A model generated the notes under the pieces. It was not told the origin of the DNA and did not search any database. It was given only the letters and a program-made list of their open reading frames with translations. Both the position numbers and the translations under genes were made by a program. From Candidatus Scalindua sp. (GTDB taxonomy: Bacteria; Planctomycetota; Brocadiia; Brocadiales; Scalinduaceae), in contig JALDRA010000001.1 in the NCBI GenBank assembly GCA_031316235.1, positions 1,140,001 to 1,172,000 of the forward strand: a stretch of DNA of 32,000 nt, in the 5' to 3' direction. This document shows positions 532-28,453 of the stretch, in pieces. Each line of letters opens with the position of its first letter. Position 1 is the stretch's first letter.

Positions 532-643
532 GGAAATATAATGTTACGCCATTAACAATGTTGACCCAAGAGATGTTGATGATTCTGTCTGTCAAAAAGA
601 AAGGGAAACATTAAAACGTTCAGGAGAAAAATTCAATAAATTT

Positions 644-865
644 ATGAAAATGAAACGAGACAAAGAAGTAGAAATTCCTTATAAAATTAGAAATGAAAGG
701 TATAATGCGTTTTTAGAGGAGTATAGTTCTTATACTGAAGAGATATTAGAAGAACTACATAAAACACATTGTCAAACAAAATGGGGAAGTTCAGACTCTT
801 CTGAATATATGGCAATAGCACAACAATTGGCGAAAAAGAGAAGACAACGGCTACTTTCTCAATAA
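644..865 (+). CDS. Hypothetical 73-aa protein (cassette ORFan)
   Basis: ORF track. It lies between a core-like GTTACGC (543) and attC-like site 908-1033. No family recognised. Confidence 0.4.
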   Translation: MKMKRDKEVEIPYKIRNERYNAFLEEYSSYTEEILEELHKTHCQTKWGSSDSSEYMAIAQQLAKKRRQRLLSQ

Positions 866-907
866 ATTCTGTTAAAAGAATAGGGAAATGCTAAATATCA
901 TAAACCG

Positions 908-1033
908 TAGTATCAAGCGCATGAAGCCAACCACCAATAACTATAAGGTTTAATATTTATTGAAGCTGCCGCTCCAAGCTTCTCTTGTAAACATTACACT
1001 CAGGTGGTGGTTGCTTATGTTCAAACGTTAGGC
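908..1033 (+). repeat. attC-like site, family 1 copy A
   Basis: Shares the ~125-bp family-1 consensus with 13340, 22706, 27664 and 28334. The arms CATGAAGCCAACCACC and GGTGGTGGTTGCTTATG pair imperfectly with bulged bases. The 3' box GTTAGGC (1027-1033) fits GTTRRRY. The 5' box is degenerate (TAGTATC). Confidence 0.6.
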
Positions 1034-1051
1034 GGTGCAAGGGAAAACATT

Positions 1052-2323
1052 ATGGAATCTGCCATTTCAGCAGACCGTCTCAGGTTTCTCATCAATCGTT
1101 TGCGTAAGCGCCTTTGGGTGAAACCATTGGCGGTTTGCTTGTTGTCGGTCGGCGCGGCCTTCGTGGCGAAACTTGCTGATGACACCGCGCTAGCACAGTT
1201 CGTGCCTAAGATCGCACTTGACTCTATCGAGACGTTGCTGTCCGTCATGGCGGCCAGTATGTTGGTAATCGCCACCTTTTCGGTGGCGTCGATGGTGTCG
1301 GCATATGCTTCAGCTAGTAGTACCGCTACTCCGCGTTCATTTGGTTTGGTCGTTGCCGACGACGTATCCCAGAACGCGCTTTCGACTTTCGTTGGCGCTT
1401 TCATTTTCAGCATCGTGGCTCTAACGGCGGTTAAAAACGCCTACTTTGAAAAGGCAGGTCTGTTCATCCTCTTTATCCTGACGACGATAGTATTCGGGAT
1501 GGTAATCTTTACGTTTGTGCGCTGGGTTGACAGCATCGCCCGCCTTGGGCGCCTTGGATCGACGATTGACAAGGTTGAAAAGGCAACGGTTGAAGCCCTG
1601 AAACGACGACGTGCTGCGCCAAGCCTATATGGTATGCCGGAGGATAAATCTCGGGTACGGGGGCAACCAGTATTTGCAAAGAATATTGGATACGTGCAGC
1701 ATATCGACATGGCCGCAATTCAAGTGTGGGCCGAGGAAGCCAGCGCACGGGTGGTGGTAGCGGCATTGCCTGGTACGTTTGCTGCACCTGATCGGGTACT
1801 GGCGTATGTGAGCAGCTCATCAGGCAACCGGTCTGAAATTGACTACACGTGCGCTGTCGAGTCGTTTCAGATTGGAAACGAACGTCTTTTCGATGATGAC
1901 CCACGTTTTGGTCTGGTCGTTCTATCGGAAATAGCCGGTCGTGCTCTGTCACCGGCTGTAAATGACCCCGGTACGGCGATCAATATTATCGGCGTACTGC
2001 TTCGACTCTTTGCTCTGTGGAATGACCCGTCGAAAGGAGACGACACGAAAACGTGCAAGTATAATCTCGTAGAAGTGCCTCAGATTTCGATCCGCGATAT
2101 GTTCGATGACGCGTTCACAGCGATTTCCCGTGACGGTGCGGGGACGGTCGAAGTCGCAGTGCGGCTACAGAAGGCGCTGGGCACTCTGACATCGATTGGA
2201 CATTCTGAAATGAGGGATGCTGCTATCTATCATGGGCAGCTGGCACTGAAACGCGCATGCAAAGCGCTTGATTTGGATGAAGACCTGGCGGTCGTCCGAG
2301 ATGCGGCCAGCGAAGTAGGGTAG
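1052..2323 (+). CDS. Membrane protein, DUF2254-like
   Basis: ATG at 1052 is in frame with ORF 1004..2323 and lies just after the GTTAGGC box. It has N-terminal TM helices followed by a soluble domain, which resembles DUF2254. The gene is visibly GC-richer than its surroundings. Confidence 0.55.
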   Translation: MESAISADRLRFLINRLRKRLWVKPLAVCLLSVGAAFVAKLADDTALAQFVPKIALDSIETLLSVMAASMLVIATFSVASMVSAYASASSTATPRSFGLVVADDVSQNALSTFVGAFIFSIVALTAVKNAYFEKAGLFILFILTTIVFGMVIFTFVRWVDSIARLGRLGSTIDKVEKATVEALKRRRAAPSLYGMPEDKSRVRGQPVFAKNIGYVQHIDMAAIQVWAEEASARVVVAALPGTFAAPDRVLAYVSSSSGNRSEIDYTCAVESFQIGNERLFDDDPRFGLVVLSEIAGRALSPAVNDPGTAINIIGVLLRLFALWNDPSKGDDTKTCKYNLVEVPQISIRDMFDDAFTAISRDGAGTVEVAVRLQKALGTLTSIGHSEMRDAAIYHGQLALKRACKALDLDEDLAVVRDAASEVG

Positions 2324-2405
2324 GCATCGCCTATCGTCATTTATAATAGTAAGACGAGAAATTTATAGTGAATAGGATAAGCATTGCTTGACTTTTACAT
2401 GCTTT

Positions 2406-2760
2406 TCAGTTTTGGTTGGCAGGCAATGCCTGCCCTACTCGACTGACAGGCTCAAGTTCCTCTGAAACAGGCAGATCGAGAACATGTCTGTACAGAAATA
2501 CAATGGCATCCAACACCTGCCGCTGAGTTGATGCCGAAACATTCCGTTCTGTTGCCAGACGGCTCAAAAATGCCTCGATCTCAGTTTTTCCCATTTCACG
2601 AGGATGCTTTTTTGCATTTGTGAAACTTGATATAATACTCAATTCAGTCACAATACGTTCGTTCAGTGTGATATGCGTAATGATGATATCGTAATACCTG
2701 GCGAACCTGGTCCATAAGTTTCAAACGAGAATCCAGTTTAAATTTCTTCTTGATTTCCAT
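2406..2760 (-). pseudogene. intI: Integron-integrase-like tyrosine recombinase, N-terminal ~118 codons only
   Basis: The minus-strand reading MEIKKKFKLDSRLKLMDQVRQVLRYHHYAYHTERTYCD*IEYYIKFH, after a frameshift, continues NAKKHPREMGKTEIEAFLSRLATERNVSASTQRQVLDAIVFLYRHVL. This parallels the IntI1 N-terminus ([37 protein letters not shown]...[31 protein letters not shown]). There is a TGA where Trp is expected, one frameshift, and no catalytic domain. Confidence 0.7.
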
Positions 2761-2851
2761 GATATAGTTCATTAACGTAAATAGATGAAAAATTCAACTA
2801 CAAATATTCTATCTATTTATGAAAATATAAAAGTATATGGAAATTTTTCAG

Positions 2852-2902
2852 GTTGATAAATGCAATATGTACGAAATATTCCATTTATCAACGATGTTAG
2901 GC
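2852..2902 (+). other. attI-like junction: 11-bp inverted repeat plus GTTAGGC core
   Basis: GTTGATAAATG (2852-2862) and CATTTATCAAC (2882-2892) form a perfect inverted repeat, followed by GAT and then GTTAGGC (2896-2902). It lies between the divergent intI remnant and the first + strand ORF. Confidence 0.4.
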
Positions 2903-2977
2903 ATCGCGAGCACGAAGTACAGAAAGTAATTACGACACATTCGTAATATTATTCTCCAGTCAAAGAAGAGCATAAAA

Positions 2978-4156
2978 ATGACAAGTATATTTCTTAGCCA
3001 TAGTCATGCAGACAAACCTTTCGTAAGGAAGCTTGCGTCAGATTTGACTGAGAATGGGGTTAAAGTTTGGCTTGATGAGGCTGAAATGCTCATAGGAGAT
3101 TCGCTTATTGAAAAGATAAGTGCTGGACTTGAAGAAACCGCATTTGTCGGAGCCATATTATCAGAAAATTCTGTAACTTCGAGTTGGGTGAAAAGAGAGC
3201 TCGAAATAGCGATCAATGAAGAAATAGATGGAAAACAGAGAAAAGTTCTACCCATAGTAATTGAAAACTGTGACATTCCTAAATTTCTTGCAGGGAAGCT
3301 TTACGCCGATTTTAGAGACCCGGATACTTATAATCAAAAACTCAATATGGTTCTAAAAAGCCTAGGAATTAACGTTGATGTTTTGAGTGATAAACCATTT
3401 GAACCAGAAACAATACTAATTCCAAAAGGTAGTTTCCTTATGGGTAGTGATAGGAAAATTGATGACTACGCAGATGATGATGAACTACCCCTGCATGAGC
3501 TATACCTTGGATATTACTACTTGGGAAGAACGACGGTTACGAATAGTCAGTTTGCCGAATATGTACGTCAAACAAATAATATTCCGAAAAAGTGGAAGGA
3601 TTTTGGATATGACCCTGAGAAAGGGATTAAACAAAGCTTGCTTAATCACCCAGCGGTTTGGATTACTTGGTACGAGGCGCTCGATTATTGTGTTTGGCTA
3701 TCTGCTATGACCGGAAAAAAATACAAACTCCCGTCGGAAGCAGAGTGGGAGAAAGGTGCAAGAGGGACATCAGGTAGGATATACCCGTGGGGTGATAAGT
3801 ATTCTCCAGAACGCGCTAGAAACTGCGACAAAGGGGAAGTTGAAATCGACGAAATACATGTTGATGTAGAGTCTTATCACATAGGGGGCAGTCCTTATGG
3901 GTTGTTACATATGGCGGGTAATGTACAAGAATGGACTTCTAGCTTATGGGGTGCTAACCAAACAACGAGCTTTCCCTATCCATACAGTTCCTCTGATGGA
4001 AGGGAATATCAATTAGCGAATAGTGATATTGCTAGAGTAGTAAGAGGAGGTTCGTTCTTACATAATATGAAGGGCATAAGATGTGCGTACCGAAATGGTG
4101 TAAAACCAAATGACCCAGGTGCAGCCATAGGTTTTCGTATAGTGAAAGTCGTGTAA
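2978..4156 (+). CDS. TIR domain / FGE (SUMF1)-like domain fusion protein
   Basis: N-terminal TIR motifs: IFLSHSHADKPFV, VWLDEAEMLIGD, SSWVKRELEIA. C-terminal FGE-family motifs: HPAVWITWYEALDYCVWLS, LPSEAEWEKGARG, YPWGD, HMAGNVQEWT, RVVRGGSF, IGFRIV. Confidence 0.85.
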   Translation: MTSIFLSHSHADKPFVRKLASDLTENGVKVWLDEAEMLIGDSLIEKISAGLEETAFVGAILSENSVTSSWVKRELEIAINEEIDGKQRKVLPIVIENCDIPKFLAGKLYADFRDPDTYNQKLNMVLKSLGINVDVLSDKPFEPETILIPKGSFLMGSDRKIDDYADDDELPLHELYLGYYYLGRTTVTNSQFAEYVRQTNNIPKKWKDFGYDPEKGIKQSLLNHPAVWITWYEALDYCVWLSAMTGKKYKLPSEAEWEKGARGTSGRIYPWGDKYSPERARNCDKGEVEIDEIHVDVESYHIGGSPYGLLHMAGNVQEWTSSLWGANQTTSFPYPYSSSDGREYQLANSDIARVVRGGSFLHNMKGIRCAYRNGVKPNDPGAAIGFRIVKVV

Positions 4157-4164
4157 ATTTAAAT

Positions 4165-4517
4165 GTCTAACGCCAGCAATTAACTCGGACAAATCTCCGC
4201 GGTGCTTGTTTTGTGCTAAAAAAGAAAAGAAAAAGGGGTCAAAAAAGAAAAGGGGTCAGATCTTTCCATGACTGCATATCTGCTTTAAGACTGTATATTG
4301 CTTTTTTATATTTGTACTATTATTCATACTCTCTTTCAACCGAAAATTGCTTGAAGCTATAGTTTTGTAAGAGTTGGTTTTATATCTTTTTGCGATCTCT
4401 GGAAAACTCAGTCCTGATATACTAAAACCGATTTGGTTTTCGGTTTTACCGGAAACTCATTCAAAGCGGATTCGTAGGGCAGTTGACGGCTGTCAACACT
4501 GTTGAGAATCGTTAGAT
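4165..4517 (+). repeat. attC-like site, expanded or disrupted
   Basis: The 5' box GTCTAAC (4165-4171) lies 8 nt after the stop codon. The 3' box GTTAGAT (4511-4517) is near-complementary to it. The ~350-bp interval contains a MITE-1 fragment, a Rep4-like piece and GGGGTCA motifs. Confidence 0.4.
4418..4456 (-). mobile_element. MITE-1 fragment (one terminus only)
   Basis: TATACTAAAACCGATTTGGTTTTCGGTTTTACCGGAAAC matches the termini of full copies at 28065 and 30979, after which homology stops. Confidence 0.5.
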
Positions 4518-4566
4518 TTAATATTGTTTTCCGAACATAACACATATACAGTAAGGACAGTAAAAC

Positions 4567-4800
4567 ATGAAAACTTATGAATTTACCCTAATTATTTCGG
4601 AAGTAGACGATAAAAAAGCTGAGGCAATCTATAGTAAGTGTGCCGATTCAAGCTTAGGCAAACGTAACAGTACGACTTATGTTGCTTTCGATAGAGAAGC
4701 AGAGAGCCTGGAATATGCAATTGACTCAGCTATAACTGACCTAAAAAGTGTCGGTGTGCAGCCACTACACATCGAGATTGAAATTCCAGCTACGGTATAA
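4567..4800 (+). CDS. Hypothetical 77-aa protein (cassette ORFan)
   Basis: ORF track. It starts 50 nt after GTTAGAT. No family confidently recognised. Confidence 0.5.
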   Translation: MKTYEFTLIISEVDDKKAEAIYSKCADSSLGKRNSTTYVAFDREAESLEYAIDSAITDLKSVGVQPLHIEIEIPATV

Positions 4801-4828: not shown

Positions 4829-4924
4829 AGGTGGGGGTCAAATCTTGATTTGTGATTAGTGTTGCATGTCTGTATTTATTGTTGACAAACATCGACAAAG
4901 CTAATAGAAACAGTGACTATTAAA
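4829..4924 (+). repeat. Rep3 copy a, carrying a sigma70-like promoter
   Basis: GGGGTCAAATCTTGATTTGTGATTAGTG...TATTTATTGTTGACAAACATCGACAAAGCTAATAGAAACAGTGA. TTGACA (4882-4887), a 17-nt spacer, then TAGAAA (4905-4910). Homologous to 18577, 23458 and partly 7712. Confidence 0.6.
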
Positions 4925-4925
4925 G

Positions 4926-5052
4926 ACCTAACCAGTCACTGGAGGTGACGCCTTTATCTCTTGCGATTTTTGAGTTTTTGGATTCTTTGCTTATTTTGTT
5001 TTTTTCCATTATTATATACGCCATACGGCGTACCTCACCTCAAACGTTATAC
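4926..5052 (+). repeat. attC-like site (singleton, 127 bp)
   Basis: 5' box ACCTAAC (4926-4932) and 3' box GTTATAC (5046-5052). The arm CAGTCACTGGAGGTGACGCC pairs with GGCGTACCTCACCTCAAAC. Confidence 0.6.
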
Positions 5053-5274
5053 GCTCAACGATAAAAGCATTATCAAGATTTAAAGTCATATTGAAGATTT
5101 TCTTTAAGGAACCTATATTTACTGTAAAATGAAAATATAAACAATTGTGTTTATACCGCTATATTGGAGTTATAAGAACAGTTTTTCCCATACACACGTT
5201 ACCGGTAAGCCGCTGAAATAACGCGTGAAACAAACAAATAAAAATTAAAACTATTAACAAACTGGGGGGCAACA

Positions 5275-7647
5275 ATGAAAAAAATCACCTACACCTTAAT
5301 TGCATTGGTATTACTATCAAGTGCGAGCTTCGCTTCATCAAATCAAAAAACAGATACGGCTATTGTTACCAATAGTATCGACAGAACAATTCTTCCAATA
5401 AAAGAACCGACTCCACCAACCTTCACTGAATTGGATGTGCGCAATGCAAAGTTGCCCCCCCGATTTGAGGTCAAAGCTCCTGAAGGAGCACCCAATGTGC
5501 TATTGGTTTTAATTGATGATCTTGGCTTTGCGGGTACGAGCACCTTCGGTGGTCCGGTTCCTACACCTGCTTTTGATAAGGTCGCAAATGAAGGACTTTA
5601 TTTTAATAATTTTCATACCACTGCTGTGTGCTCGCCCACCAGAACGGCATTAAAAAGTGGCCGCAACCACCATGTTGGCAACATGGGAAGCATTATTGAA
5701 ACCGGCACTGGTTTCCCTGGAAATACAGGCAAGATTCCACAAAATGTTACACCAGTTGCGGAAATGCTACGATTAAATGGTTACTCGACTGCCGCATTTG
5801 GTAAATGGCATGAGTTAGCAGCATGGGAGGCAAACGTTTCCGGGCCTTTTGACCGTTGGCCTACGCGTCAAGGATTTGATAAGTTTTATGGATTCCTCGG
5901 TGGGGAAACCAATCAATGGGCTCCATTTATATACGATGGTGTTCATCCTGTTGAGTTACCGGATGATCCAAATTATCACTTCATGGAAGATATGACAGAT
6001 CAAGCGACAGCATGGATAAAATATCAAAAAGCCTTAACGCCCGACAAACCATTTTTTTTGTATTTTGCTCCTGGTGCTACTCACGCTCCGCATCATGTAC
6101 CACAAAGTTATATTAACAAGTGGAAAGGAAAATTTGATGGGGGTTGGGATGCCATGCGTGAACAGATTTTGGCTCGTCAAATTGAAATAGGCATTACACC
6201 AAAAGGAACCAAATTGGCTCCAAAACCTGAAGCAATACAAGAGTGGGAAAGTCTTTCAGCAGATGAAAAACGACTTTATGCGAAACAAGCCGAAGTTTTT
6301 GCCGCATTTCTTGAAATGACGGATTATGAAGTTGGACGCCTGATTGATGCAATTGACGAGATTGGTCAAGCAGAGAATACAATGGTTATTTTTGTTTATG
6401 GCGATAATGGTACCAGTGCGGAAGGTGGAACAAGCGGTATGTACAGCGAAATGACCTACTTTAATGGGGTACAAGAAACCGTTCCGGATATGCTAAAGAA
6501 AATTGATGAGTGGGGTGGTCCGAACACGTACCCTCATATGGCTGCCGGTTGGGCCGTAATGTTTGATACACCATACAAATGGACTAAGCAAATGGGATCA
6601 GACCATGGTGGAACTAAAGTGGGTATGGCTATTCGCTGGCCAAAAGGAATTAAGGCAAAAGGAGAATTGCGTACACAATTTACACATGTAATTGATGTAG
6701 CTCCGACCATTTTAGAAGCAATTGGATTACCAGAGCCAACAGAAGTTAATGGAGTAGCGCAACGACCAATGGATGGAACAAGCATGTTGTACACTTTCAA
6801 TGAAGCAAATGCTAAAGAAAGACATACTACTCAATATTTTGAAATGTTTGGTAACCGGGCTATGTATCATGATGGCTGGTATGCAAGAACCATTCATAGA
6901 GCTCCATGGGAAAAAACGCCAAGAAGACCTCTTACTGAGGATATTTGGGAACTTTACGAAGTGGCCAATGATTTTAGTTTAATAAATGATCTTTCAGCTG
7001 AACATCCTGAAAAATTAAAAGAGCTACAAGACCTATTTATGAAAGTAGCGGAAGAAAATCACGTGTTGCCCATTGACGACCGTGTGTTCGAACGCATCAT
7101 TGCAGCAAATGTAGGACGTCCTGATATTATGGCGGGCCGTAGTTCATTAACATTAGCTGAAGGCATGACGGGTATGACCGAAAACACTTTCCTGAATATA
7201 AAAAATAAATCAGTAGTTATTACTGCTGAAATTAAGGTTAAAGAAGGCGCCTCTTCGAATGGAATTATTATTGCTCAAGGTGGTCGTTTTGGCGGTTGGG
7301 CATTGTATGTAAAAGATGGCGTTCCTGCTTACGACTATAATTTCTTAGGAATTGAACGTTATACGGTAAAAGCTTCAGAAAAGTTAAAACCCGGTAAATA
7401 CACCATCAAATTTGATTTTGCTTACGATGGTGGTGGTATTGGTAAAGGCGGAATGGGTACCTTCTATATAAATGGCACTAAATCGGGTGAAGGCCGGATA
7501 GAACGCACACAACCCGCAATATTCTCTGCCGATGAAACTGCCGATGTTGGCATCGATCTATCTACACCGGTAGTAGAAACTATTGGCGCAGAACATAAAT
7601 CAAAATTTAACGGACATATACCAAAAGTGGTTGTTGAAGTGAAATAA
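5275..7647 (+). CDS. Exported Cys-type arylsulfatase (~790 aa, AtsA-like)
   Basis: Signal peptide MKKITYTLIALVLLSSASFA. Sulfatase signature TAVCSPTRTALKSGR (CxPxR), plus LIDDLGF and GKWH motifs. Confidence 0.9.
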   Translation: MKKITYTLIALVLLSSASFASSNQKTDTAIVTNSIDRTILPIKEPTPPTFTELDVRNAKLPPRFEVKAPEGAPNVLLVLIDDLGFAGTSTFGGPVPTPAFDKVANEGLYFNNFHTTAVCSPTRTALKSGRNHHVGNMGSIIETGTGFPGNTGKIPQNVTPVAEMLRLNGYSTAAFGKWHELAAWEANVSGPFDRWPTRQGFDKFYGFLGGETNQWAPFIYDGVHPVELPDDPNYHFMEDMTDQATAWIKYQKALTPDKPFFLYFAPGATHAPHHVPQSYINKWKGKFDGGWDAMREQILARQIEIGITPKGTKLAPKPEAIQEWESLSADEKRLYAKQAEVFAAFLEMTDYEVGRLIDAIDEIGQAENTMVIFVYGDNGTSAEGGTSGMYSEMTYFNGVQETVPDMLKKIDEWGGPNTYPHMAAGWAVMFDTPYKWTKQMGSDHGGTKVGMAIRWPKGIKAKGELRTQFTHVIDVAPTILEAIGLPEPTEVNGVAQRPMDGTSMLYTFNEANAKERHTTQYFEMFGNRAMYHDGWYARTIHRAPWEKTPRRPLTEDIWELYEVANDFSLINDLSAEHPEKLKELQDLFMKVAEENHVLPIDDRVFERIIAANVGRPDIMAGRSSLTLAEGMTGMTENTFLNIKNKSVVITAEIKVKEGASSNGIIIAQGGRFGGWALYVKDGVPAYDYNFLGIERYTVKASEKLKPGKYTIKFDFAYDGGGIGKGGMGTFYINGTKSGEGRIERTQPAIFSADETADVGIDLSTPVVETIGAEHKSKFNGHIPKVVVEVK

Positions 7648-7714
7648 ATTGACAACTAAAAACTTATTTGGAGTTCAAGCAATAGCTGTGGATTGGCATG
7701 CACTTGGATTGGGG

Positions 7715-7780
7715 TCACATCTTGATTAGTGAGCTCAAAAATAAGTATAATCTCTAATCAAGATGTGATGCTTTATTTTT
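7715..7780 (+). terminator. 15-bp perfect hairpin plus T-rich tail
   Basis: TCACATCTTGATTAG (7715-7729) and CTAATCAAGATGTGA (7754-7768) with a 24-nt loop, followed by TGCTTTATTTTT. It sits between the convergent sulfatase gene and the recombinase remnant. Confidence 0.45.
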
Positions 7781-8436: not shown

Positions 8437-8541
8437 AGACCGGTAACCTCCTATTTGTTAATAGATTCACCCTTCCGTTGAGGGTGTGAGGTTACATTAT
8501 ATAATAAATTTCGGAATTCTGTTCTCCGCGATAGCGGCTTC

Positions 8542-21032: not shown

Positions 21033-21428
21033 ATGGGTATGATGAAAGAGTTTAAGGAATTTGCGGTAAAAGGAAATGTCATTGATATGGCCGTTGGCAT
21101 CATCATTGGCGCTGCATTTGGGAAAATTGTATCTTCCTTTGTAGGGGATGTGATTATGCCTCCAATAGGTGTGCTTGTAGGTGGAATCGATTTTTCCAAT
21201 TTAGCAATTACTATTAAGGAAGCTGCAGGCGAGGCTCCTGCTGTAGTAATCAGTTATGGGAAGTTTATTCAGACGGTTGTCGATTTCGTAATTATCGCAT
21301 TTGCAATTTTCATCGCTGTCAAAGGAATCAACTCACTCAAGAGAAAAGAGGAAGAAGCACCTAAGGCTCCACCAGCACAAGAAGTATTGCTTTCGGAAAT
21401 ACGCGATTTGCTGAAAGCTAAAGTGTAA
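21033..21428 (+). CDS. mscL: Large-conductance mechanosensitive channel
   Basis: [55 protein letters not shown] is collinear with E. coli MscL. Confidence 0.9.
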
Positions 21429-21436
21429 GCTTTTTT
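21414..21436 (+). terminator. Weak hairpin plus T tract at the mscL stop
   Basis: AAAGCT-aaagtgta-AGCTTT followed by TTT. Confidence 0.3.
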
Positions 21437-21638
21437 GAATCTCATCTTATAATAAAGCTAATTCAGCCGATACAAAAAAGCCGCACGGCAAATTAGCAGC
21501 AATCAGGGGTCAAAAACCTTATCTATTGCCATTATGAATACTTTTTGTTAGTTTATCGCCATGGTGGAGCTTAGAGTCAGAGGGAAATCGACATTCACAA
21601 TAATACACGTGTAAGCACAACTAAATTAACTGAGTCAT

Positions 21639-21860
21639 ATGCCAACTATCTCGATGTTTTACAGAATTATTATCAGGATGTATTGTTACCCTAGAGAGCA
21701 TAACCCTCCGCACTTCCACGCATATTATCAGAATCATAAGGCTGTAACGGTTAAGTTTGATTCTATAGAATGGGCAAATCATTTGGATAATGATCCAGAA
21801 ATATTGTATGAAAAATGTGCAAAAGTAGAAACCAAACACATAACGAATCACTCAAGTTAA
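21639..21860 (+). CDS. DUF4160-family protein
   Basis: MPTISMFYRIIIRMYCYPREHNPPHFHAYY is the DUF4160 N-terminal signature. The C-terminus overlaps a hairpin and may not be native. Confidence 0.6.
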   Translation: MPTISMFYRIIIRMYCYPREHNPPHFHAYYQNHKAVTVKFDSIEWANHLDNDPEILYEKCAKVETKHITNHSS

Positions 21861-21882
21861 CCCCTTCGTTATGTGTGGTTTT
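21829..21882 (+). other. Long hairpin overlapping the DUF4160 stop codon
   Basis: AAACCAAACACATAACGAA (21829-21847) pairs with TTCGTTATGTGTGGTTTT (21865-21882). Confidence 0.6.
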
Positions 21883-21984
21883 CAAATTTTAGATTCTTTA
21901 TTAATTTTGTTTTTATTCATAGTTTTCTCCGTCCCACGGGTTAGCTCATACTCGACGCTATGAGCAGGAAGATAAGGAGACAAG

Positions 21985-22701
21985 ATGAATCAAATTAATA
22001 TTCAGTATTACAAGACCAAGATTGGAGAGCTAATATTAGGTTCTCTTGATGGGAAATTATGCTTGCTTGATTATAGGTATAGGAGAATGAGGGCAACAGT
22101 TGATAATCGAATCAAAAAAGGTCTAAGGGCCGACTTTGTAGAAAAAAATGCTGATGTATTGTCTAAAGCAAGAGTACAACTTGATGAGTATCTTAATGGA
22201 GGTAGAATAAATTTTGATATCCCAGTATTAGTGGCAGGGACTGATTTCCAGAAAAGTGTATGGAAAGCTTTAGTGAAAATTCCTTACGGTAAGACCGCTT
22301 CTTATTTAGATATAGCAAAGTTCATTAATAAAGAAAAGGCTGTGAGAGCTGTTGCAGGTGCAAATGGAGCAAATTCAATTAGCTTGATTATTCCCTGTCA
22401 TCGAATCATAGGAAGTAACGGAGAGCTTGTTGGTTATGGTGGCGGGGTACCAGTAAAAAAACGGTTATTGAAGCTTGAGCAAAACAACTCAGGTTTACGC
22501 GATAATGAGAAATATAATTTCATTGGAAGTAAAAACATAAAGTATGATGGTGTGTTCTTTACCGCTGTAAAAACAACAGGTATATACTGCAAGCCATCTT
22601 GTAGTGCAAAAAAGCCCAATAGAGAAAATGTCATATTTTATGATACAAAAAAAGATGCTACCGAAAATGGCTATAGGCCCTGTAAGGTTTGCAAGCCATA
22701 A
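21985..22701 (+). CDS. ogt: Methylated-DNA-protein-cysteine methyltransferase fused to a C-terminal Ada-type zinc domain
   Basis: Active site IPCHRIIGSNG. The C-terminus FFTAVKTTGIYCKPSCSAKKPNRENVIFYDTKKDATENGYRPCKVCKP parallels the E. coli Ada N-domain [29 protein letters not shown]...GFRPCKRCQP. Confidence 0.85.
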   Translation: MNQINIQYYKTKIGELILGSLDGKLCLLDYRYRRMRATVDNRIKKGLRADFVEKNADVLSKARVQLDEYLNGGRINFDIPVLVAGTDFQKSVWKALVKIPYGKTASYLDIAKFINKEKAVRAVAGANGANSISLIIPCHRIIGSNGELVGYGGGVPVKKRLLKLEQNNSGLRDNEKYNFIGSKNIKYDGVFFTAVKTTGIYCKPSCSAKKPNRENVIFYDTKKDATENGYRPCKVCKP

Positions 22702-22705
22702 AAAC

Positions 22706-22830
22706 TTATAACAAGCGCATGAAACCAACCACCAGATTATATGCAGTTTAATATTTATTGAAGCTAACGTTTCACTGTTCTTCTGCATGAATCATACACA
22801 GGTGATGGTTGCTTATGTGTGTCATTATGG
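22706..22830 (+). repeat. attC-like site, family 1 copy C
   Basis: 5' box TTATAAC (22706-22712). The 3' box position reads ATTATGG (22824-22830). Confidence 0.6.
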
Positions 22831-22846
22831 CTTTTGGTACTGAGCG

Positions 22847-23482
22847 ATGAAACAAATTTCCTTAATACTCATTGATCCACAAAGAGGATTTTGCTCACCA
22901 ACAGGTTCACTCGGAAAGGAATATGGTGTAGGCGAGATATGTGAGATAACGCGAGTAATACCTAATATAAAAAAAGCTCTTAGTGAGAGTTCAAGACGAC
23001 ATGTAGTTAGTTCGTCGTATTCAGTGGCTCAATTTACTAATGGCAATACAAATCACGGCCTTGCCAACTTGTGCGTTCCTGACATCAACTCGGATTGTGC
23101 AATAATCGATGAATTTTCTGAGGTCGAGTTTAATTCACACTCAATTAAGCACGAACAAAGCGCGCTTTCATCTAGCGTATTTGTAAAAGAAATTGACAAC
23201 GACATCAGGCTGGGAATAGAGAGGTTTGTTGTGGCGGGCTTCTTACTAGAACACTGCGTAAAAAAAACCGCAGAAGATCTTAAAAAACACCTGGTAAACA
23301 CAAACTCCAAAGTATTTTTCTGCAATGACTTATCAGCTTCCAGATCGGAGAAATACAAAAATGGTATTGTGGCAGACACAATAAAAAGTCTTAATAGCAG
23401 CGGAATTCAAACTGAATTATGGCAGAGTATTCGGACATATCAATCACAGGCAGAATCGGTTCACACCTTGATTTGTGATTAG
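22847..23482 (+). CDS. Isochorismatase-family cysteine hydrolase (nicotinamidase-like)
   Basis: LILIDPQRGFCSPTGSL and VVAGFLLEHCVKKTAEDL fit the D-K-C triad context. The last ~9 codons lie inside Rep3. Confidence 0.65.
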   Translation: MKQISLILIDPQRGFCSPTGSLGKEYGVGEICEITRVIPNIKKALSESSRRHVVSSSYSVAQFTNGNTNHGLANLCVPDINSDCAIIDEFSEVEFNSHSIKHEQSALSSSVFVKEIDNDIRLGIERFVVAGFLLEHCVKKTAEDLKKHLVNTNSKVFFCNDLSASRSEKYKNGIVADTIKSLNSSGIQTELWQSIRTYQSQAESVHTLICD

Positions 23483-23540
23483 TGTTGTAAATCTGTATTT
23501 ACTGTTGACACAAATATTGGAAAGGCTAATAGGATTTATT
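23458..23540 (+). repeat. Rep3 copy b
   Basis: GGTTCACACCTTGATTTGTGATTAGTGTTG...TATTTACTGTTGACA (TTGACA at 23505-23510), a 16-nt spacer, then TAATAG. Confidence 0.55.
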
Positions 23541-23684
23541 AATGCTTTTCTTGATTTATCCAAAAACTGCCCAATCCATAAGCGAGGGGTTGATCAAGCC
23601 GTTTTCGCTGCCAATCAATTAGGGTTGCCACTCTACATCCTGTTAGCTTCCGTTTGAGTGACCTGACATAAATTTTTCTTAGTA

Positions 23685-23729
23685 TTTGTTATGGGAGAAT
23701 AACATATTTTGTTATTCTCCCATAACAAA
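23685..23729. repeat. Perfect 20-bp-arm palindrome
   Basis: TTTGTTATGGGAGAATAACA-tattt-TGTTATTCTCCCATAACAAA. Confidence 0.85.
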
Positions 23730-23944
23730 ACATAATCACTGAATTTGGTTCCTGCTGTTATATTCTTAATTTATAACTACTTGCATAATTGTCATCTACA
23801 GGCAGTATGTGGCATGATATCTGCGAAAGCATATTATTAGATTTGTTAAAATAAAAGGGGACTATAAAAAAAGTGGATCAGTCGCATAGCCACTCATCTC
23901 ATCCTGGGAATTGGAAAAACAAAGATTATTGATAGGAGGTTATA

Positions 23945-24202
23945 ATGTTGGGTTCAGAAAGAGAAGGAAATCGTAAGGTAGTTCTTACCAAGTGGATGCT
24001 AGTAATCTTTTCGCTCGGCACATTTGGCTATTACATACTATTAGGGATTAATGATAAAGCCTCTCCTTGAATCCTCTTTATGAATTTTGTGCTTGGGTTA
24101 GGTGCAATTGGAGGAGCTTTCACTTTAGGTAATATATTTAAACATCGGGCGAAAACAGAACAGGCTAAGAGTGCGGCTGATGAGAAAAAGGTTCAGGGAT
24201 GA
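23945..24202 (+). pseudogene. Small 2-TM protein ORF interrupted by one in-frame TGA
   Basis: AGGAGG RBS 5 nt upstream. The reading is MLGSEREGNRKVVLTKWMLVIFSLGTFGYYILLGINDKASP*ILFMNFVLGLGAIGGAFTLGNIFKHRAKTEQAKSAADEKKVQG*. Confidence 0.4.
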
Positions 24203-24351
24203 GAGGAAAAAGGCAAAGCGGAAGCAGATAAAGTAACAACGGAAACTGTCACCATAAAATAAAAAGCTTAACAAATACCAGAGCAAACTGATACCCCAGC
24301 CTTAGAACAAAACTTTTTAAGATAAAAACAAATATGAAAGAGAGGTATTAA

Positions 24352-25239
24352 ATGTTTGGCAAAAAAAATATAACAATTTTTGTCCTGTTAATTCTATTAT
24401 TTTCCATAGGATGCACTAGCATTCCAGTTAAGAAGTATGAGTTACTAACTAAATCAAGCCAAAGCATAATGAATGGTACGACGGAGACATATAATCGTAT
24501 CGAAAAACTTCAACACATCTTTTCCATTGAAACGGCTGATGATGGACAAATTGATGCAAATACTTTTCAACCCAAAATTGAGATTGAAGAGTGGAAGTTC
24601 GAGTCTTTTGATCTTACACCAGAACTTCGATTTAGAGAGACGGCATTAGAAGTGTTGGTGAAATACTCTCTTGTGTTGGAAGCTTTTACCAAGGAGGATT
24701 TCCAGGGAGAAGTTAATAAAGCGTCTATTGAATTGGCGGGAAGTTTGAAATCACTTGCCGAGACTACAGCACCTAATGATGCGAGCAAAACTCAAGCTGT
24801 CAGTGTTCTTGCAACATTAGTTAATGTAATTGGTACTCAAATCGTCGTGCATAAACAAAAAGAAGCATTAAAAAATGTTATGGACCTAGCTCAAAACGAT
24901 CTCAATGTTTTAGCGACATTAATTAATGGGAGTAATGGTAAATTGAAACAGGCTGTTGGCATACATCTGGACAGAATTATTAGACACAGAAACACAAGAC
25001 GACCACCTGTTAATTCTATTGAACGTTATAACTTTGATCTGGCGGTTTCTAACCTAATCAGTGAAGGAATAGAAGTTAAGGATGCACTTGACACACTTAG
25101 TAACGCAGTAAAAGAATATTCTTTAGCCCATCAAGAAATCAGACAAAAACTTGATGTAAGTGGCACCAGTATAGAAGCATTAACTGCACTCATTAGCGAA
25201 GCACAGCGTATTAATAAATTTTATAGAAGTGTTAAGTAA
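24352..25239 (+). CDS. Lipoprotein of unknown function, predicted all-helical
   Basis: Signal peptide plus lipobox LFSIGC. No family recognised. Confidence 0.7.
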   Translation: MFGKKNITIFVLLILLFSIGCTSIPVKKYELLTKSSQSIMNGTTETYNRIEKLQHIFSIETADDGQIDANTFQPKIEIEEWKFESFDLTPELRFRETALEVLVKYSLVLEAFTKEDFQGEVNKASIELAGSLKSLAETTAPNDASKTQAVSVLATLVNVIGTQIVVHKQKEALKNVMDLAQNDLNVLATLINGSNGKLKQAVGIHLDRIIRHRNTRRPPVNSIERYNFDLAVSNLISEGIEVKDALDTLSNAVKEYSLAHQEIRQKLDVSGTSIEALTALISEAQRINKFYRSVK

Positions 25240-25265
25240 TTTTTCTAGAAAAGGAGAGAATTATC

Positions 25266-25580
25266 ATGAGTCATGAATTATGTGAAAAAATTGGGGGGTT
25301 AGCTTCTCGTGTAAATAACGCAGCCGTACACTCTACTGGTTCTGAAAGTAGGCAATTGCTTGAGATTCAAGATCGGTTTGCTAAGCTACAGCTTGTTGCT
25401 ATTGTTAAGGATCTTCAGGCAGAACATAATGATTATAAGGCGGCAGTCAAAGGTCTTAATGAAGCTATTGATTTTATTGGTGATGCTACAGAGAAAATTA
25501 ACAATGTTGCCAAAGCAATTAAACTTACAGCCAAAGCAGCTGAACTTGTAGAAAAAGCAATTAAGAGTGCCGCAGCATAA
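25266..25580 (+). CDS. Small helical protein (104 aa), unknown function
   Basis: AAGGAGAG RBS, starting 26 nt after the lipoprotein gene. Ala/Lys-rich helical C-terminus. Confidence 0.6.
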   Translation: MSHELCEKIGGLASRVNNAAVHSTGSESRQLLEIQDRFAKLQLVAIVKDLQAEHNDYKAAVKGLNEAIDFIGDATEKINNVAKAIKLTAKAAELVEKAIKSAAA

Positions 25581-25627
25581 AACATAGCAATCGTAGCAAT
25601 CAATCCAATCGGAGGTCCCCCGATTCG

Positions 25628-25678
25628 AAATTTCACTTGAAAATTGCTTCAAAGTACTATAACCATGACTATGATATT
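25628..25678 (+). repeat. Rep4 copy 2, followed by core-like GTTAGGA at 25684-25690
   Basis: Near-identical to 480-531. Confidence 0.6.
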
Positions 25679-25797
25679 TAACTGTTAGGATTTCGAAAAT
25701 TATCAAACAGATCATAAATCATTGACTCAAAGCTATACATATAATCTATTCACGATGGTGAACCATATTCTCAACCCACCTTTAAGGAGAAAACAAA

Positions 25798-26580
25798 ATG
25801 GCTGCTGATAAAACCCAGCAACAGGAAGAGAATGCGAGAAGTAAAATTGGGCGTCATATTGTTTATTTCGCTCTCGCAATAATCGGGATACTAGGTATTT
25901 CTGCATTAATTGTTATATGGCGAGCAGAGGCTACTAGCCTGGAAAAGCGCTTATCTGCGGTAAAAGACATACTTTCCATTCTTTTGCCAGTAGTGGGTAC
26001 CTGGGTTGGTACTGTCCTAGCCTTTTATTTTTCAAAAGAAAATTTTGCCACTGCAGCACAGCAAACTTCCGATTTAGTTCGTCAACTCACTCCTGAAGAG
26101 AAGCTGAAATCTATTAAAGCAAAAAGTGTATGGATATCGATGACTAATAAAAAGACCGTCTCTCTAACTCTTGATAAAGAAGAAAAAGAAATACATCTTA
26201 AAAAAGATATCCTTGACTTACTAACAAAAACCAATAGAAATAGACTGCCAATAGTTACCGCTTCAGGAAATGTAAAGTACTTGATACACCGAAGTATTAT
26301 AGATAAATTTATTTCTGAACAAGCGATTTCAGGAAAACTTTCAGATGAGAAAACAGCAGCGAAATTAACCTTGGAAGAATTCCTTCAGGAGGGTACTTAT
26401 AAACAAATTTCCCAGTCATTTGGTATCGTAAATATAGATGCAAGCCTAATTGATGTTAAAGCACAGATGGATTCAATCGATAATTGCTCAGACGTTTTTG
26501 CGACAGAAGATGGTACAAAAAATGGTAATGCATCGGGTTGGGTGACTAATGGAATCTTACAAGAACATTCAAAAGTCTAA
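25798..26580 (+). CDS. Membrane protein: two N-terminal TM helices plus a C-terminal CBS-pair-like region
   Basis: TM helices HIVYFALAIIGILGISALIVIW and ILSILLPVVGTWVGTVLAFYF. Two CBS-like units (...NRNRLPIVTASGNVKYLIHRSIIDKF and ...NCSDVFATEDGTKNGNASGWVTNGILQE). Confidence 0.6.
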   Translation: MAADKTQQQEENARSKIGRHIVYFALAIIGILGISALIVIWRAEATSLEKRLSAVKDILSILLPVVGTWVGTVLAFYFSKENFATAAQQTSDLVRQLTPEEKLKSIKAKSVWISMTNKKTVSLTLDKEEKEIHLKKDILDLLTKTNRNRLPIVTASGNVKYLIHRSIIDKFISEQAISGKLSDEKTAAKLTLEEFLQEGTYKQISQSFGIVNIDASLIDVKAQMDSIDNCSDVFATEDGTKNGNASGWVTNGILQEHSKV

Positions 26581-26585
26581 ATATG

Positions 26586-26608
26586 GCCTAACGCCGAAGA
26601 GTAGGAGG
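26586..26608 (+). repeat. attC 5' remnant
   Basis: GCCTAACGCC parallels GTCTAACGCC at 4165, and CGCCGAAGA is shared with 14491. No 3' half follows. Confidence 0.4.
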
Positions 26609-26720
26609 TATACTCATCTCATAATGGTTTTCGGATAAAATCCGAGATAAAATTGAGCGAGTATACCTTCACCAAGATTTGGTTTCCGGTAAAACCGAAA
26701 ACCAAATCGGTTTTAGTATA
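26609..26720 (+). mobile_element. MITE-1, short form (112 bp)
   Basis: A full copy lying between the attC remnant and the start-less TIR reading frame. Confidence 0.75.
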
Positions 26721-26779
26721 TTACCAGGGAAGGAAATTTTGATATAGCATTCTCTTTTGCTGGTGAACAGCGAGAATAT

Positions 26780-27652
26780 GTGGAAGCTACCTATACAAAA
26801 TTAAAACAACTCGGTATCTCCGTCTTCTACGACGCATCACAAGTTGCCGATCTTTTGGGTAAGAATTTATACGAATATTTGAGCGATGTTTACCAAAACC
26901 AAGCTAAATATTGTGTAGTTTTCTTATCAAAGGAGTACGCAAATAAGTTGTGGACTAAGCACGAACTAAAGAGTATGCAGGCTCGGGCTTTCCAAGAGTC
27001 AAGAGAGTATATATTACCTGCCCGTTTTGACGACACAGAAATTCCTGGTTTACTTCCTGCTATTGCTTATATAGATCTTAACGAATATGCCCCTGGTAAA
27101 TTTGCTGAATTAATTGCAGATAAAGTCAAAGATCGAGATATGGGACAGGAACCAATCATTAATCCAGAACTCGAAGTAAATTTAACAGATGTTGTCATAT
27201 GGGCTCAAGAATATTTAAGGCCCCAATCGTTAGATCTTTCAGATGCTGTTGCTGAGTCTGTTCGTACATCTTTTCGAGAAGCTGGAATCCAACCAGAACG
27301 CCAACATTTAATTCCATACATTCGGAATCCGAGAGCCGAATACCGTGTTGTTGGCTATTTTGCATTCCAAATTGATCCAATAAAGGAAATGGTTCTGGAC
27401 TTGATTAATGGTCTAAGCCACGAACGAGTGGAGGCAACCGAACGAAAAGAGACCAGGCCACTCTGGCAACTTTTAGTCTGCTTTACATATCTCATGCAGC
27501 ATCAGACCCCTCCTGCGGATCGCGACTTGATCAAGAAGGCTCTTAAAGATTTTATAGAGTTCATGCAGAATGATTCTGCTATAGATCCAGGTGGGGAATG
27601 CCGGGCACGTATTGAAATGATAACAGGGGAACGCTGGCTATTCACTGCATGA
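26780..27652 (+). CDS. TIR-domain protein with an unknown C-terminal domain; 5' end apparently lost
   Basis: The frame is open from 26717 (YITREGNFDIAFSFAGEQREYVEAT...), so the TIR betaA motif FDIAFSFAGE lies upstream of the first canonical start (GTG at 26780). Also YCVVFLSKEYANKLWTKHELKS and ILPARFDDTEIPG. Confidence 0.7.
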   Translation: MEATYTKLKQLGISVFYDASQVADLLGKNLYEYLSDVYQNQAKYCVVFLSKEYANKLWTKHELKSMQARAFQESREYILPARFDDTEIPGLLPAIAYIDLNEYAPGKFAELIADKVKDRDMGQEPIINPELEVNLTDVVIWAQEYLRPQSLDLSDAVAESVRTSFREAGIQPERQHLIPYIRNPRAEYRVVGYFAFQIDPIKEMVLDLINGLSHERVEATERKETRPLWQLLVCFTYLMQHQTPPADRDLIKKALKDFIEFMQNDSAIDPGGECRARIEMITGERWLFTA

Positions 27653-27663
27653 AATATGAAAGC

Positions 27664-27788
27664 GCATAACAATTGCACGAAACCAACCACCAGATTATAT
27701 GCAGTTTAATATTTATTGAAGCCACCGTTTCACTGTTCTCCTGCATGAATAGCGTACCGGTGGTGGTTACTTATGTGTAGCGCTAGGT
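27664..27788 (+). repeat. attC-like site, family 1 copy D
   Basis: 5' box GCATAAC (27664-27670). The 3' box position reads GCTAGGT (27782-27788). Confidence 0.6.
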
Positions 27789-27843
27789 GAAAAAGTAATA
27801 ATAACACTTGAAATTATTAACGAGATGCAATACTATCTAATGA

Positions 27844-28312
27844 ATGATTAAAAACTTTGTTTACAAAAGAACAGAGAAAATATTCAACTGTCGAATACCA
27901 CTTAAACTTCCACGGAATATACAAAAAACTGCCCGAAGAAAACTTGAAATACTCGAAGCTGCTGAAATGCTGGCTGATTTACGTATACCACCAGATAATC
28001 ACCTTGAAAGACTACCGAAAGACAGGAAGGGGCAATAGAGTATCGGTATTGATGATGAATGGCATATACTAAAACCGATTTGGTTTTCAGTTTTACTGGA
28101 AAACAAATCTTGGTGAAGGTATACTCGCTCAATTTTATCTCGGATTTTATCCGAAAACCATTATGAGATGAGTATTTATGTTTTGAATGGCGTAGAGGAG
28201 ATGCTTACAACGTAGAAATAGTAGATTACCATCAGGAGGCACGTATGGCAAAAAAGATAGATTAAAGAATCGACTAGATCAAGAAGTACACGTTTACACT
28301 TCTGCAATGTGA
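27844..28312 (+). pseudogene. Decayed higB-higA paralogue
   Basis: Collinear with 12721-13318. It has a TAT>TAG nonsense at 28036, a MITE inside the WRICFEW codons, and a lost higB stop. higA is reduced to MAKKID* by a ~230-bp deletion between AAAAAG repeats. Confidence 0.8.
28065..28175 (-). mobile_element. MITE-1, short form, inserted in the higB remnant
   Basis: TATACTAAAACCGATTTGG...GAGATGAGTA interrupts sequence that is contiguous in the intact copy at 12948-12960. Confidence 0.75.
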
Positions 28313-28333
28313 ACAATTATGCAGTGATTCTGC

Positions 28334-28453
28334 ACATAACCGCATGAAGCCACCCACCAAGCTCATTCATGATTCACTTTTAGCGAGGCTACTTCTAAAC
28401 CTCCCTTGCATGAATCATACACAGGCGATGGTTGCTTATGCGAAACATTATTA
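28334..28453 (+). repeat. attC-like site, family 1 copy E
   Basis: 5' box ACATAAC (28334-28340). CGCATGAAGC pairs with GCTTATGCG. The 3' box position reads ATTATTA (28447-28453). Confidence 0.6.

Follow-up and report, generated by a model that had tools for sequence, protein, structure and literature searches.

A probable integron gene-cassette array with an integrase pseudogene on the chromosome of the anammox planctomycete Candidatus Scalindua

Planctomycetes integrons, taxon-specific attC families, frequent pseudogenes of the integrase gene intI ("pseudo-integrons") and clusters of attC sites lacking integron-integrases (CALINs) are all known already (PMC2426708, PMC8352920, PMC4889954). 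Sedentary chromosomal integrons have been delimited by more than 19 attC sites, or by presence in all genomes of a species, together with an integrase (PMC4889954). We analyzed a 32,000-nt stretch of DNA, referred to here as the window, from Candidatus Scalindua sp., an anammox member of the Planctomycetota (assembly GCA_031316235.1, contig JALDRA010000001.1, positions 1,140,001 to 1,172,000, forward strand). Positions ~475-28453 of the window are very likely an integron gene-cassette array, the remains of a chromosomal integron. In the literature we searched, we found no published description of integrons in Scalindua or anammox planctomycetes.

In its present state, the locus is a cassette array that lacks a working integrase, that is, a CALIN with a recognizable intI pseudogene and attI, and such a combination is the decayed state of a sedentary chromosomal integron. 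CALINs are defined by at least two attC sites within 4 kb and no integrase gene called nearby. Here, ten sites were found, and no open reading frame (ORF) in the window passes the cut-off of the integrase model (94 bits against a threshold of 265 bits). The functional intI of a complete integron is missing. With ten solid sites, ~7 remnants and a dead integrase, the locus also falls outside the sedentary chromosomal integrons as delimited by Cury et al. (2016). IntegronFinder would probably class it as a CALIN. Of 279 CALINs, only 15 were reported to have pseudogenes nearby (PMC4889954); the profile used in that survey was C-terminal and would miss an N-terminal remnant such as the intI in the window.

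An initial annotation of the window had proposed an integron-type cassette array. We found most features tested for attC sites and all of those tested for a cassette array, and the proposal is supported by structured, co-oriented attC sites, by a cassette footprint and by cassette content that differs between close relatives. The same annotation had likened the locus to a sedentary chromosomal integron; the chromosomal integron origin holds, but the integrase has been inactivated and the crossover triplet is mutated at most sites.

The window has a GC content of 42% and contains a run of unrelated genes on the + strand, with ~125-bp repeats between them and a GC content that ranges from 31% to 59% among cassettes. 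To identify attC sites, we used a covariance model (R1) that was trained on 44 sites from other genomes only and run on the window with filters off. The model recovered exactly ten window sites, whose E-values range from 2e-25 to 4e-7 and which all lie on the + strand. After these, the best match on either strand had E=0.77, and no match on the minus strand was better than E=0.7, so this structure-aware check found sites on one strand only. The ten sites, with their 5' (R'') and 3' (R') boxes, are:

908-1033, + strand: family 1; degenerate R'' TAGTATC, R' GTTAGGC; 92.4 bits, E=1.4e-20.
4926-5052, + strand: diverged family 2 subtype; R'' ACCTAAC, R' GTTATAC; 95.6 bits, E=2.3e-21.
8542-8668, + strand: family 2; R'' GTCCAAC, R' mutated to GTCAGGC; E=7e-16.
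9866-10128, + strand: family 2, split by a miniature inverted-repeat transposable element (MITE); R'' TCCTAAC, R' GTTACAG; E=4e-7.
13340-13464, + strand: family 1, fully canonical (ACATAAC...GTTCGGC); 111.9 bits, E=2e-25.
18777-18903, + strand: family 2; R'' TTCTAAC, R' mutated to ATTATAA; E=6e-17.
21838-21963, + strand: diverged family 2 member; R' mutated to GCTATGA; E=1.6e-10.
22706-22830, + strand: family 1; R' mutated to ATTATGG; E=5e-19.
27664-27788, + strand: family 1; R' mutated to GCTAGGT; E=8e-18.
28334-28453, + strand: family 1, last of the array; R' mutated to ATTATTA; E=5e-8.

Both repeat families lie where the initial annotation had placed them, and sites 4926-5052 and 21838-21963 are additions to family 2. 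Each site consists of an AAC-ending box, a 4-6 nt spacer, an arm that pairs imperfectly with a 3' arm, a spacer and a GTT-type box. At 4926-5052, for example, TG[G]AGGT[G]ACGCC pairs with GGCGTACCTCA (bulged bases in brackets). As families 1 and 2 align in both arms and share a common core (...AGC[C]AACC... / ...GGTTGCT...), they are diverged versions of one site type. The MITE-split site was found as two halves by nhmmer.

The structure of the sites is that of attC. In the 44 foreign sites, an R''/L''-L'/R' structure leaves 84% of cells paired, compared to 26-50% after sliding of the 3' partners. Pairing reaches 90% in the L stem, where five positions show compensatory double changes (e.g., AU:22, CG:18 and GC:3 at one pair), and the covariation score of 0.232, compared to 0.120 in shuffles, was reached by none of 500 shuffles. 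Family 2 taken alone gives the same structural picture. In both families, two single-base bulges lie on the + strand 5' (AAC) arm, which reads GCAT[G]AAGC[C]AACCACC in one and GTG[G]AGC[C/T]AACCCC in the other. The top-strand extrahelical bases of attC lie on the AAC-carrying arm (Nivina et al., 2016; PMC5027507), and the placement of the bulges matches this rule, as expected of extrahelical bases. As attC sites, they would be recombined by IntI with the bottom strand folded. Minimum free energy folding of single sites recovered the family-1 stem, not the family-2 structure, with modest z-scores, and a rigid box-and-stem scan missed real sites because of their bulges.

Both triplets are conserved elsewhere: GTT is present in 39 of the 44 foreign sites and AAC in 42, a count for which two sites of locus L003 with alignment-shifted boxes were read directly. 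An exact family-1 pattern matched 19 loci in our genome collection, all from metagenome-assembled genomes of Candidatus Scalindua, Brocadiaceae or other Planctomycetota. In these 19 loci, families 1 and 2 occur together, at cassette-sized spacing and on a single strand within each locus. The repeats are thus co-oriented clusters and not the dispersed repeats, resembling repetitive extragenic palindromic (REP) sequences, that the initial annotation had set against its proposal.

Beyond the ten solid sites, support is uneven. The initial annotation counted at least 13 sites of one architecture, of which the ten detected by the covariance model stand and the rest are unvalidated. Seven singleton sites (4165, 7745, 10783, 12533, 14492, 15632 and 25577) have no match to the family-specific model and are listed here as unvalidated. 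The singleton at 12533-12666 (GCACAAC...GTTATGA) has a bulged stem and a bottom-strand fold of -15.3 kcal/mol (z=-2.0) and has no homologues. Sites 10783-10881 (GTATAAC...GTTGAGC, boxes assigned by eye) and 25577-25690 (R' GTTAGGA) are only plausible candidate attC sites and lack a match to the model. Orphan 5' boxes occur at 4165, 7745 (ending in AAT) and 14492 (ending in AAG), with another at 26586; neither folding nor the covariance model supports any of the four, and the first three have no verifiable hairpin or 3' partner. The short site at 15632-15670 is unconvincing, with no support from folding or the model.

Integron recombination crosses over at G|TT. As a result, the variable part of R'' should complement the start of its own cassette and not the adjacent R'. 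When the first four bases of R'' in the window were compared with the cassette start, 28 of 40 informative positions were complementary (17.6 expected, p≈1e-4). In other Scalindua arrays, the count was 69 of 100, against 53.6 expected (0 of 20000 permutations, p<5e-5), and R'' compared with its own R' in the same arrays gave only 54 of 100. The six complementary hexamer pairs quoted in the initial annotation are all present, within 1 nt of where it placed them. Also as it described, ORFs on the + strand are tightly placed: a site typically lies 5-45 nt past the stop codon and the next start codon follows 11-62 nt after the 3' box. The ten sites are all on the + strand, and between them are mostly single ORFs on that same strand.

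Inside the span of the initial annotation, and unnoticed there, we found an integrase pseudogene and its predicted attachment site:

2406-2760, - strand: integron-integrase (intI) pseudogene (TIGR02249 E=8e-27, PF13495 E=3.5e-30).
2761-2902, + strand: predicted attI region, with a hairpin at 2852-2892 followed by ATCAAC-GAT-GTTAGGC; crossover G|TT at 2896/2897.

The intI remnant covers only positions 1-87 of the 315 in the TIGR02249 model. A conserved Trp codon is replaced by an in-frame TGA, the reading frame is shifted, and homology is gone after ...EELEPV (~2445), where homologues continue (...EELEPVRAKK..RPPVVMT). The catalytic domain and the IntI-specific insertion are absent. The 140 bp that separate the intI start codon from GTTAGGC (2896-2902) share homology with DNA adjoining the intI remnants of two other genomes, L015 and L024. 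Across the three loci this homology stops at G|TTA, beyond which each has a different first cassette. That of L024 opens with TTAAAC, and its attC with GTTTAAC, a footprint of 6/6. Conservation beside intI remnants, together with the stop at G|TTA, identifies 2761-2902 as the predicted attI. Its hairpin folds at -11.8 kcal/mol. The initial annotation had also listed a 57-bp attC-like site, with no coordinates; it does not hold up as an attC, since the best candidate is the hairpin ending in GTTAGGC (2896-2902), and the site was probably this attI hairpin.

These elements suggest how the locus would have formed. IntI would once have taken up promoterless gene cassettes singly, with each attC folding as a single-stranded bottom-strand hairpin and recombining at G|TT with the attI beside intI. 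The outcome would be a row of unrelated genes that all point in one direction, with an attC closing off each. The platform here would be intI (minus strand, 2406-2760) and attI (to 2902); from it the array extends to the right as far as 28453, and a further pair of cassette units lies left of the intI remnant (475-2335). Cassette genes would persist only if driven by their own signals, and a higBA toxin-antitoxin cassette may help to stabilize the array.

The array proper is at 2897-28453. The two cassette units on the other side of the intI remnant, and a half-site, lie beside lexA:

475-549, + strand: truncated attC, 3' part only, with R' GTTACGC (543-549); leftmost trace of the array, 5' half absent.
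544-1027, + strand: cassette with a 73-aa ORF (644-865), bounded by G|TT at 543 and attC 908-1033.
1028-2335, + strand: DUF2254 cassette (ORF 1052-2323, 53% GC; PF10011 E=1.6e-89).

The half-site shares 90% identity with the 3' part of site 25623-25662. Past the stop codon of the DUF2254 cassette, only an R''-like box remains (GCCTATC, 2329-2335); it fits the cassette start TTAGGC, and folding revealed no convincing hairpin at this 3' end. One history that would account for the left-hand units is that the locus consists of two joined pieces, in which a deletion or rearrangement that truncated intI brought a true integron (2897-28453) together with a separate attC cluster (475-2335). Cassettes on the + strand occur on both sides of the intI remnant, IntI homology breaks off at ~2445 after ...EELEPV, and the leftmost site is a 3' half only, all of which would fit a junction; integron-splitting chromosomal rearrangements are also a recognized origin of CALINs (PMC4889954). 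Against this, no diagnostic junction was found, folding gives weak support to a join of an attC with a secondary site at 2400-2412, and no related locus with the ancestral arrangement was recovered. We regard such a join as a serious possibility that stops somewhat short of probable, and it bears on the history of the locus, not on the nature of its elements. A specific version, in which a complete attC after DUF2254 recombined with a GTT inside intI ("integrase suicide"), was rejected as unsupported: folding backs it weakly (-6 kcal/mol), and the point where IntI homology ends lies ~40 nt further in.

The site at 908-1033 has a counterpart in L004 (3230-3355). Each belongs to family 1, has an unusual degenerate 5' box (...GTATC for ...ATAAC) and is situated past the 3' end of an intI pseudogene, the relative orientation being opposite in the two. 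The two may be orthologous.

The array shows extensive decay. A GTT-type 3' box at every site, as initially described, is not what we found: the crossover triplet is changed at six of the ten solid sites, which carry ATT, GCT or GTC instead (GTC at 8542; ATT at 18777, 22706 and 28334; GCT at 21838 and 27664). GTT is thus absent from 6/10 window sites, compared to 5/44 elsewhere (Fisher p=0.0026). At site 908, AAC is changed to ATC. Only 4926, 9866 and 13340, three of the ten validated sites, keep both triplets.

Mobile elements have added to the damage. A MITE of ~140 bp, bounded by terminal inverted repeats (TATACTCATC... / ...ATTAGTATA) and with a duplicated TA target, is present in several copies, together with an insertion sequence (IS) and a second recombinase pseudogene:

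8672-8811, + strand: MITE, 3 nt after attC 8542-8668.
9947-10085: MITE inside attC 9866-10128, with TA duplication.
26609-26721: internally deleted MITE, which took most of one attC and the start of a TIR gene.
28065-28186, - strand: MITE, disrupting a second higBA cassette.
30979-31100, - strand: MITE, outside the array.
18979-21016, - strand: IS1182-family insertion sequence (transposase 19163-20767; NF033551 E=3e-6).
7861-8440, - strand: second tyrosine-recombinase pseudogene, with an in-frame stop and truncated after ~190 aa; directly left of attC 8542.

Fragments of the MITE occur at ~4425-4450 and 31489-31530, and also in L003 (6937-7052). The public contigs L001 and L002 end at 4443, and public short-read contigs of the locus end inside the MITE. 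Runs SRR28338161 and SRR28338162, from enrichment cultures, also contain the locus. The IS1182-like element has 25-nt terminal inverted repeats (18979-19003 and 20992-21016). The 15.6-21.5 kb part that the initial annotation treated as a possible interruption consists mostly of the IS1182-like insertion (18979-21016), to which decayed sites and a minus-strand TauE gene are added. The recombinase pseudogene at 7861-8440 scores alike with TIGR02249 (75 bits), XerA (74.5) and XerD (70) and is absent from L003, the closest relative. It is generic, not specifically IntI, and may derive from some other mobile element or from a second integron platform.

We also observed a REP-like element (GGGTCA.A.CTTGATTTGTGATTAGTGTTG...TTGTTGACAAA) at 4835-4925, 18583-18678 and 23458-23547, and in L006, L013, L015 and L020. 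In several Scalindua genomes it recurs just upstream of family-2 attC sites. At 1895-1965 of L015, it is followed by an IS200/RAYT-like pseudogene, an arrangement suggestive of a REP/RAYT relationship.

The closest relative of the window is the L003 locus of Scalindua sp. SCAELEC01 (assembly SHMT01). It carries the sulfatase cassette and a site of the 4926 type, both 98.7-98.8% identical to the window (98.7% for the sulfatase, against L003 633-3103), and the GltS cassette at 95% identity with a different downstream site. The 3' end of the candidate attC of the rubrerythrin cassette (10783-10881) is also common to L003. In SCAELEC01, a higA fragment and other genes come after the sulfatase, and cassette order and neighbors differ from those of the window. 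The locus is therefore not conserved gene for gene, the outcome that would have spoken against a cassette array; the two strains share cassettes in another order and context. At L003 3095-3150, the last sulfatase codons are swapped for a fragment resembling the 3' part of the 475-549 / 25623-25690 site, so some array rearrangements are not clean G|TT exchanges.

All four Scalindua-group intI copies that we inspected are dead, each by a different lesion. The window copy has a stop codon, a frameshift and a truncation. In L004, an internal deletion fuses the N-terminal domain to ...TTEIYTHV; in L015, the gene is cut by a palindromic element and then an IS200/RAYT-like pseudogene; and in L024, it is split into ORFs of 124 aa and 131 aa and truncated. 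Truncation of intI by attC sites was considered as a rule for the clade and rejected, as the lesions are a palindromic element in L015 and an internal deletion in L004. In all three of the long contigs that we inspected, a truncated, internal intI lies between cassette-like arrays and core genes:

L025, 8001-8507: truncated intI.
L027, 8001-8498: truncated intI.
L024, 2133-2895: truncated intI.

These observations bear on whether the integron is still active, with an intact integrase elsewhere in the genome or on a mobile element recombining the attC sites in trans and the local pseudogene being one of several copies. Cassettes that are 95-99% identical stand in different orders in the window and in SCAELEC01, which points to fairly recent rearrangement, and both triplets are kept at 4926, at the MITE-split 9866, at 13340 and at the unvalidated 12533. 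Moreover, ~20% of integron-bearing genomes have more than one IntI and half of all CALINs are in IntI-encoding genomes (PMC4889954). Nevertheless, the four dead intI copies with their differing lesions, the loss of the crossover triplet at 6/10 sites (significantly above other genomes), the sites split or truncated by MITEs, and the SCAELEC01 differences that resemble illegitimate joins, not clean G|TT exchanges, make an active integron unlikely. We infer that the array is now largely immobile and "fossilizing."

Could the integrases of the whole lineage have been shut down repeatedly? Under this proposal, integrons in Scalindua/Brocadiales were silenced by at least four independent intI kills, joined in the window genome by the mutated crossover triplets of most attC sites, possibly through selection to freeze a useful cassette set and not through neutral decay. 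If so, these genomes would offer a natural series in which to study the conversion of integron cassettes into permanent genes of the chromosome. The best 120 homologues of the IntI N terminus by word index (P0001-P0120) are all 89-193 aa long, but an exhaustive homologue search retrieved IntI relatives of 300-350 aa at ~50% identity. The impression that all copies are truncated is therefore partly an artefact of fragmentary metagenomes, and the short homologues are probably a mix of metagenome fragmentation and frequent intI decay. We consider a lineage-wide shutdown quite doubtful. A weaker side possibility is that IntI N-terminal fragments of ~100-190 aa are retained for a function, such as attC or attI binding.

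Finally, the notion that the repeats are ordinary REP/MITE-type intergenic sequences with no link to integrons, placed by insertion preference or a terminator role, draws on their being lineage-specific, hairpin-forming and intergenic, on the real MITE and REP-like repeats in the window and on the lack of an Rfam match, but it is effectively refuted by strict co-orientation within every locus, by RYYYAAC/GTTRRRY ends whose variable part matches the start of their own cassette, by the tie to intI remnants and a conserved attI in three genomes, by cassette-wise shuffling between strains, and by the true MITE itself, which occurs in both orientations, inside genes and outside the array.

Several points weigh against our reading of the locus as the now largely immobile remains of a chromosomal integron. 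The covariance model is specific to the two site families, and the singleton sites are not validated by it. Rfam, at both gathering and permissive thresholds, gave no relevant match in the window. Only the N-terminal third of the predicted integrase survives, and this part leaves out the IntI-specific insertion that defines integron integrases. The cassettes beyond the 3' end of intI (475-2335) depart from the textbook layout. The GTT triplet is needed mainly for micro-homology between partner sites (PMC5027507), so the mutated sites may keep some activity. Immobility is likewise a deduction, as an intact second integrase elsewhere in the genome could act in trans.

The cassettes to the right of attI, read as units of the array, encode a broad range of functions:

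2897-4171, + strand: first cassette, a fusion of TIR and FGE-sulfatase (SUMF1-like) domains (ORF 2978-4156; PF13676, PF03781); orphan R'' box GTCTAAC (4165-4171), footprint 3/4.
4172-4518, + strand: degenerate stretch containing part of a MITE, with R' GTTAGAT (4512-4518) at its end; no attC fold or match to the covariance model. The cassette that follows, with ORF 4567-4800, is closed by attC 4926-5052.
5047-7751, + strand: sulfatase cassette (ORF 5275-7647; PF00884 E=2e-58); orphan R''-like box GTATAAT (7745-7751), footprint 4/4, yet with AAT in place of AAC. Further on, attC 9866-10128 closes a cassette with ORF 8914-9840.
10123-10881, + strand: rubrerythrin cassette (ORF 10181-10758; PF02915), with candidate attC 10783-10881.
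10876-12666, + strand: GltS cassette (ORF 10906-12129, 59% GC; PF03616), with singleton attC-like site 12533-12666; footprint 3/4.
12661-13464, + strand: higB/higA toxin-antitoxin cassette (PF05015, TIGR02607), closed by attC 13340-13464.
13459-15670, + strand: Zn-dehydrogenase (13526-14470) and CN-hydrolase (14645-15613), from Pfam matches; parted only by degenerate boxes (GCCGAAG at 14492, GTTGGAC at 14625 and the short site 15632-15670), none of them backed by folding or the model.
15768-18059: MFS transporter (+ strand) and TauE (- strand), from Pfam matches; no verifiable cassette ends.
21033-21963, + strand: mscL and a DUF4160 ORF, from Pfam matches; closed by attC 21838-21963.
21958-22830, + strand: Ogt/Ada methyltransferase cassette, from Pfam matches; attC 22706-22830.
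22825-25690, + strand: isochorismatase-like gene, REP-like element (23458-23547) and ORFs 24352-25239 and 25266-25580, from Pfam and repeat matches; candidate attC 25577-25690.
25685-26721, + strand: cassette with ORF 25798-26580; attC cut to R'' GCCTAAC (26586-26592), footprint 3/4 against TTAGGA.
26780-27788, + strand: N-terminally truncated TIR-domain gene (PF13676 match from profile position 17); attC 27664-27788.
27790-28453, + strand: decayed second higBA cassette, with the inverted MITE 28065-28186 inside; attC 28334-28453.

The higB/higA cassette is thus present twice (12661-13458 and 27790-28340), at ~86-90% identity, the second time as a pseudogene. TIR domains are found in two cassettes (2978-4156 and 26780-27652), with PADLOC matches at the level of the TIR domain only; an anti-phage role for them is a guess.

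The array is flanked by the following genes and sequences:

1-126, - strand: N-terminal part of lexA (MHLTPRQKDIF...; PF01726 LexA_DNA_bind E=4e-10); left flank, the gene running off the window.
130-435, + strand: ~300 bp of non-coding sequence between lexA and the first attC remnant, with a terminator-like hairpin, GAACGGCTGCACCGTTTTTT, at its end (411-432).
28464-32000: right flank, with a methyltransferase-like gene (58% GC), DUF1232 and Dus (- strand), from Pfam matches and GC content. Further right are the MITE copy at 30979-31100 and the start of a putative membrane/transporter-like ORF.

LexA represses many integron integrases, and the position of lexA next to the array may be coincidental. 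The stretch at 130-435 contains no convincing ORF and matches nothing in Rfam; a small RNA that has escaped annotation, or sequence decay, may account for it. The right flank is probably core genome.

The biology of the locus is ordinary for integrons and leaves knowledge of the integron mechanism unchanged; its value lies in annotation and comparative genomics. It puts a sizeable integron cassette array into an anammox planctomycete, and its two related, Brocadiales-specific attC families could help to retrieve cassettes from metagenomes of marine and groundwater origin. The locus also illustrates integron decay clearly, with a dead integrase, mutated crossover points and invasion by MITE and IS elements. 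The cargo includes TIR-domain genes, which are candidates for anti-phage functions, a toxin-antitoxin pair, transporters and redox enzymes.

Among known systems, the locus most resembles CALINs (Cury et al., 2016; PMC4889954), with which it shares at least two co-oriented attC sites mostly less than 4 kb apart, no functional intI nearby, cassettes of mostly unknown or miscellaneous function and associated IS elements. It differs in that an intI pseudogene and attI are still recognizable inside the cluster, and with ten solid sites plus remnants it is larger than most, as 83% of CALINs have fewer than six sites (PMC4889954). Like sedentary chromosomal integrons such as those of Xanthomonas and the Vibrio cholerae superintegron with its VCR repeats, it is a long chromosomal array with homogeneous, lineage-specific attC sites of ~125 bp, a toxin-antitoxin cassette and content that varies between close relatives; the integrase is also inactivated in many Xanthomonas strains (PMC2426708). 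Unlike these integrons, it has no working integrase, two diverged attC families instead of one, crossover mutations at most sites, heavy MITE and IS invasion and an anammox planctomycete as host. Finally, the sites share with the Planctomycetes-type attC (Ghaly et al., 2021; PMC8352920) a clustered arrangement and a taxon-specific sequence and structure on Planctomycetes chromosomes. Families 1 and 2 may fall inside the model of that type or form a separate, Brocadiales-specific type.

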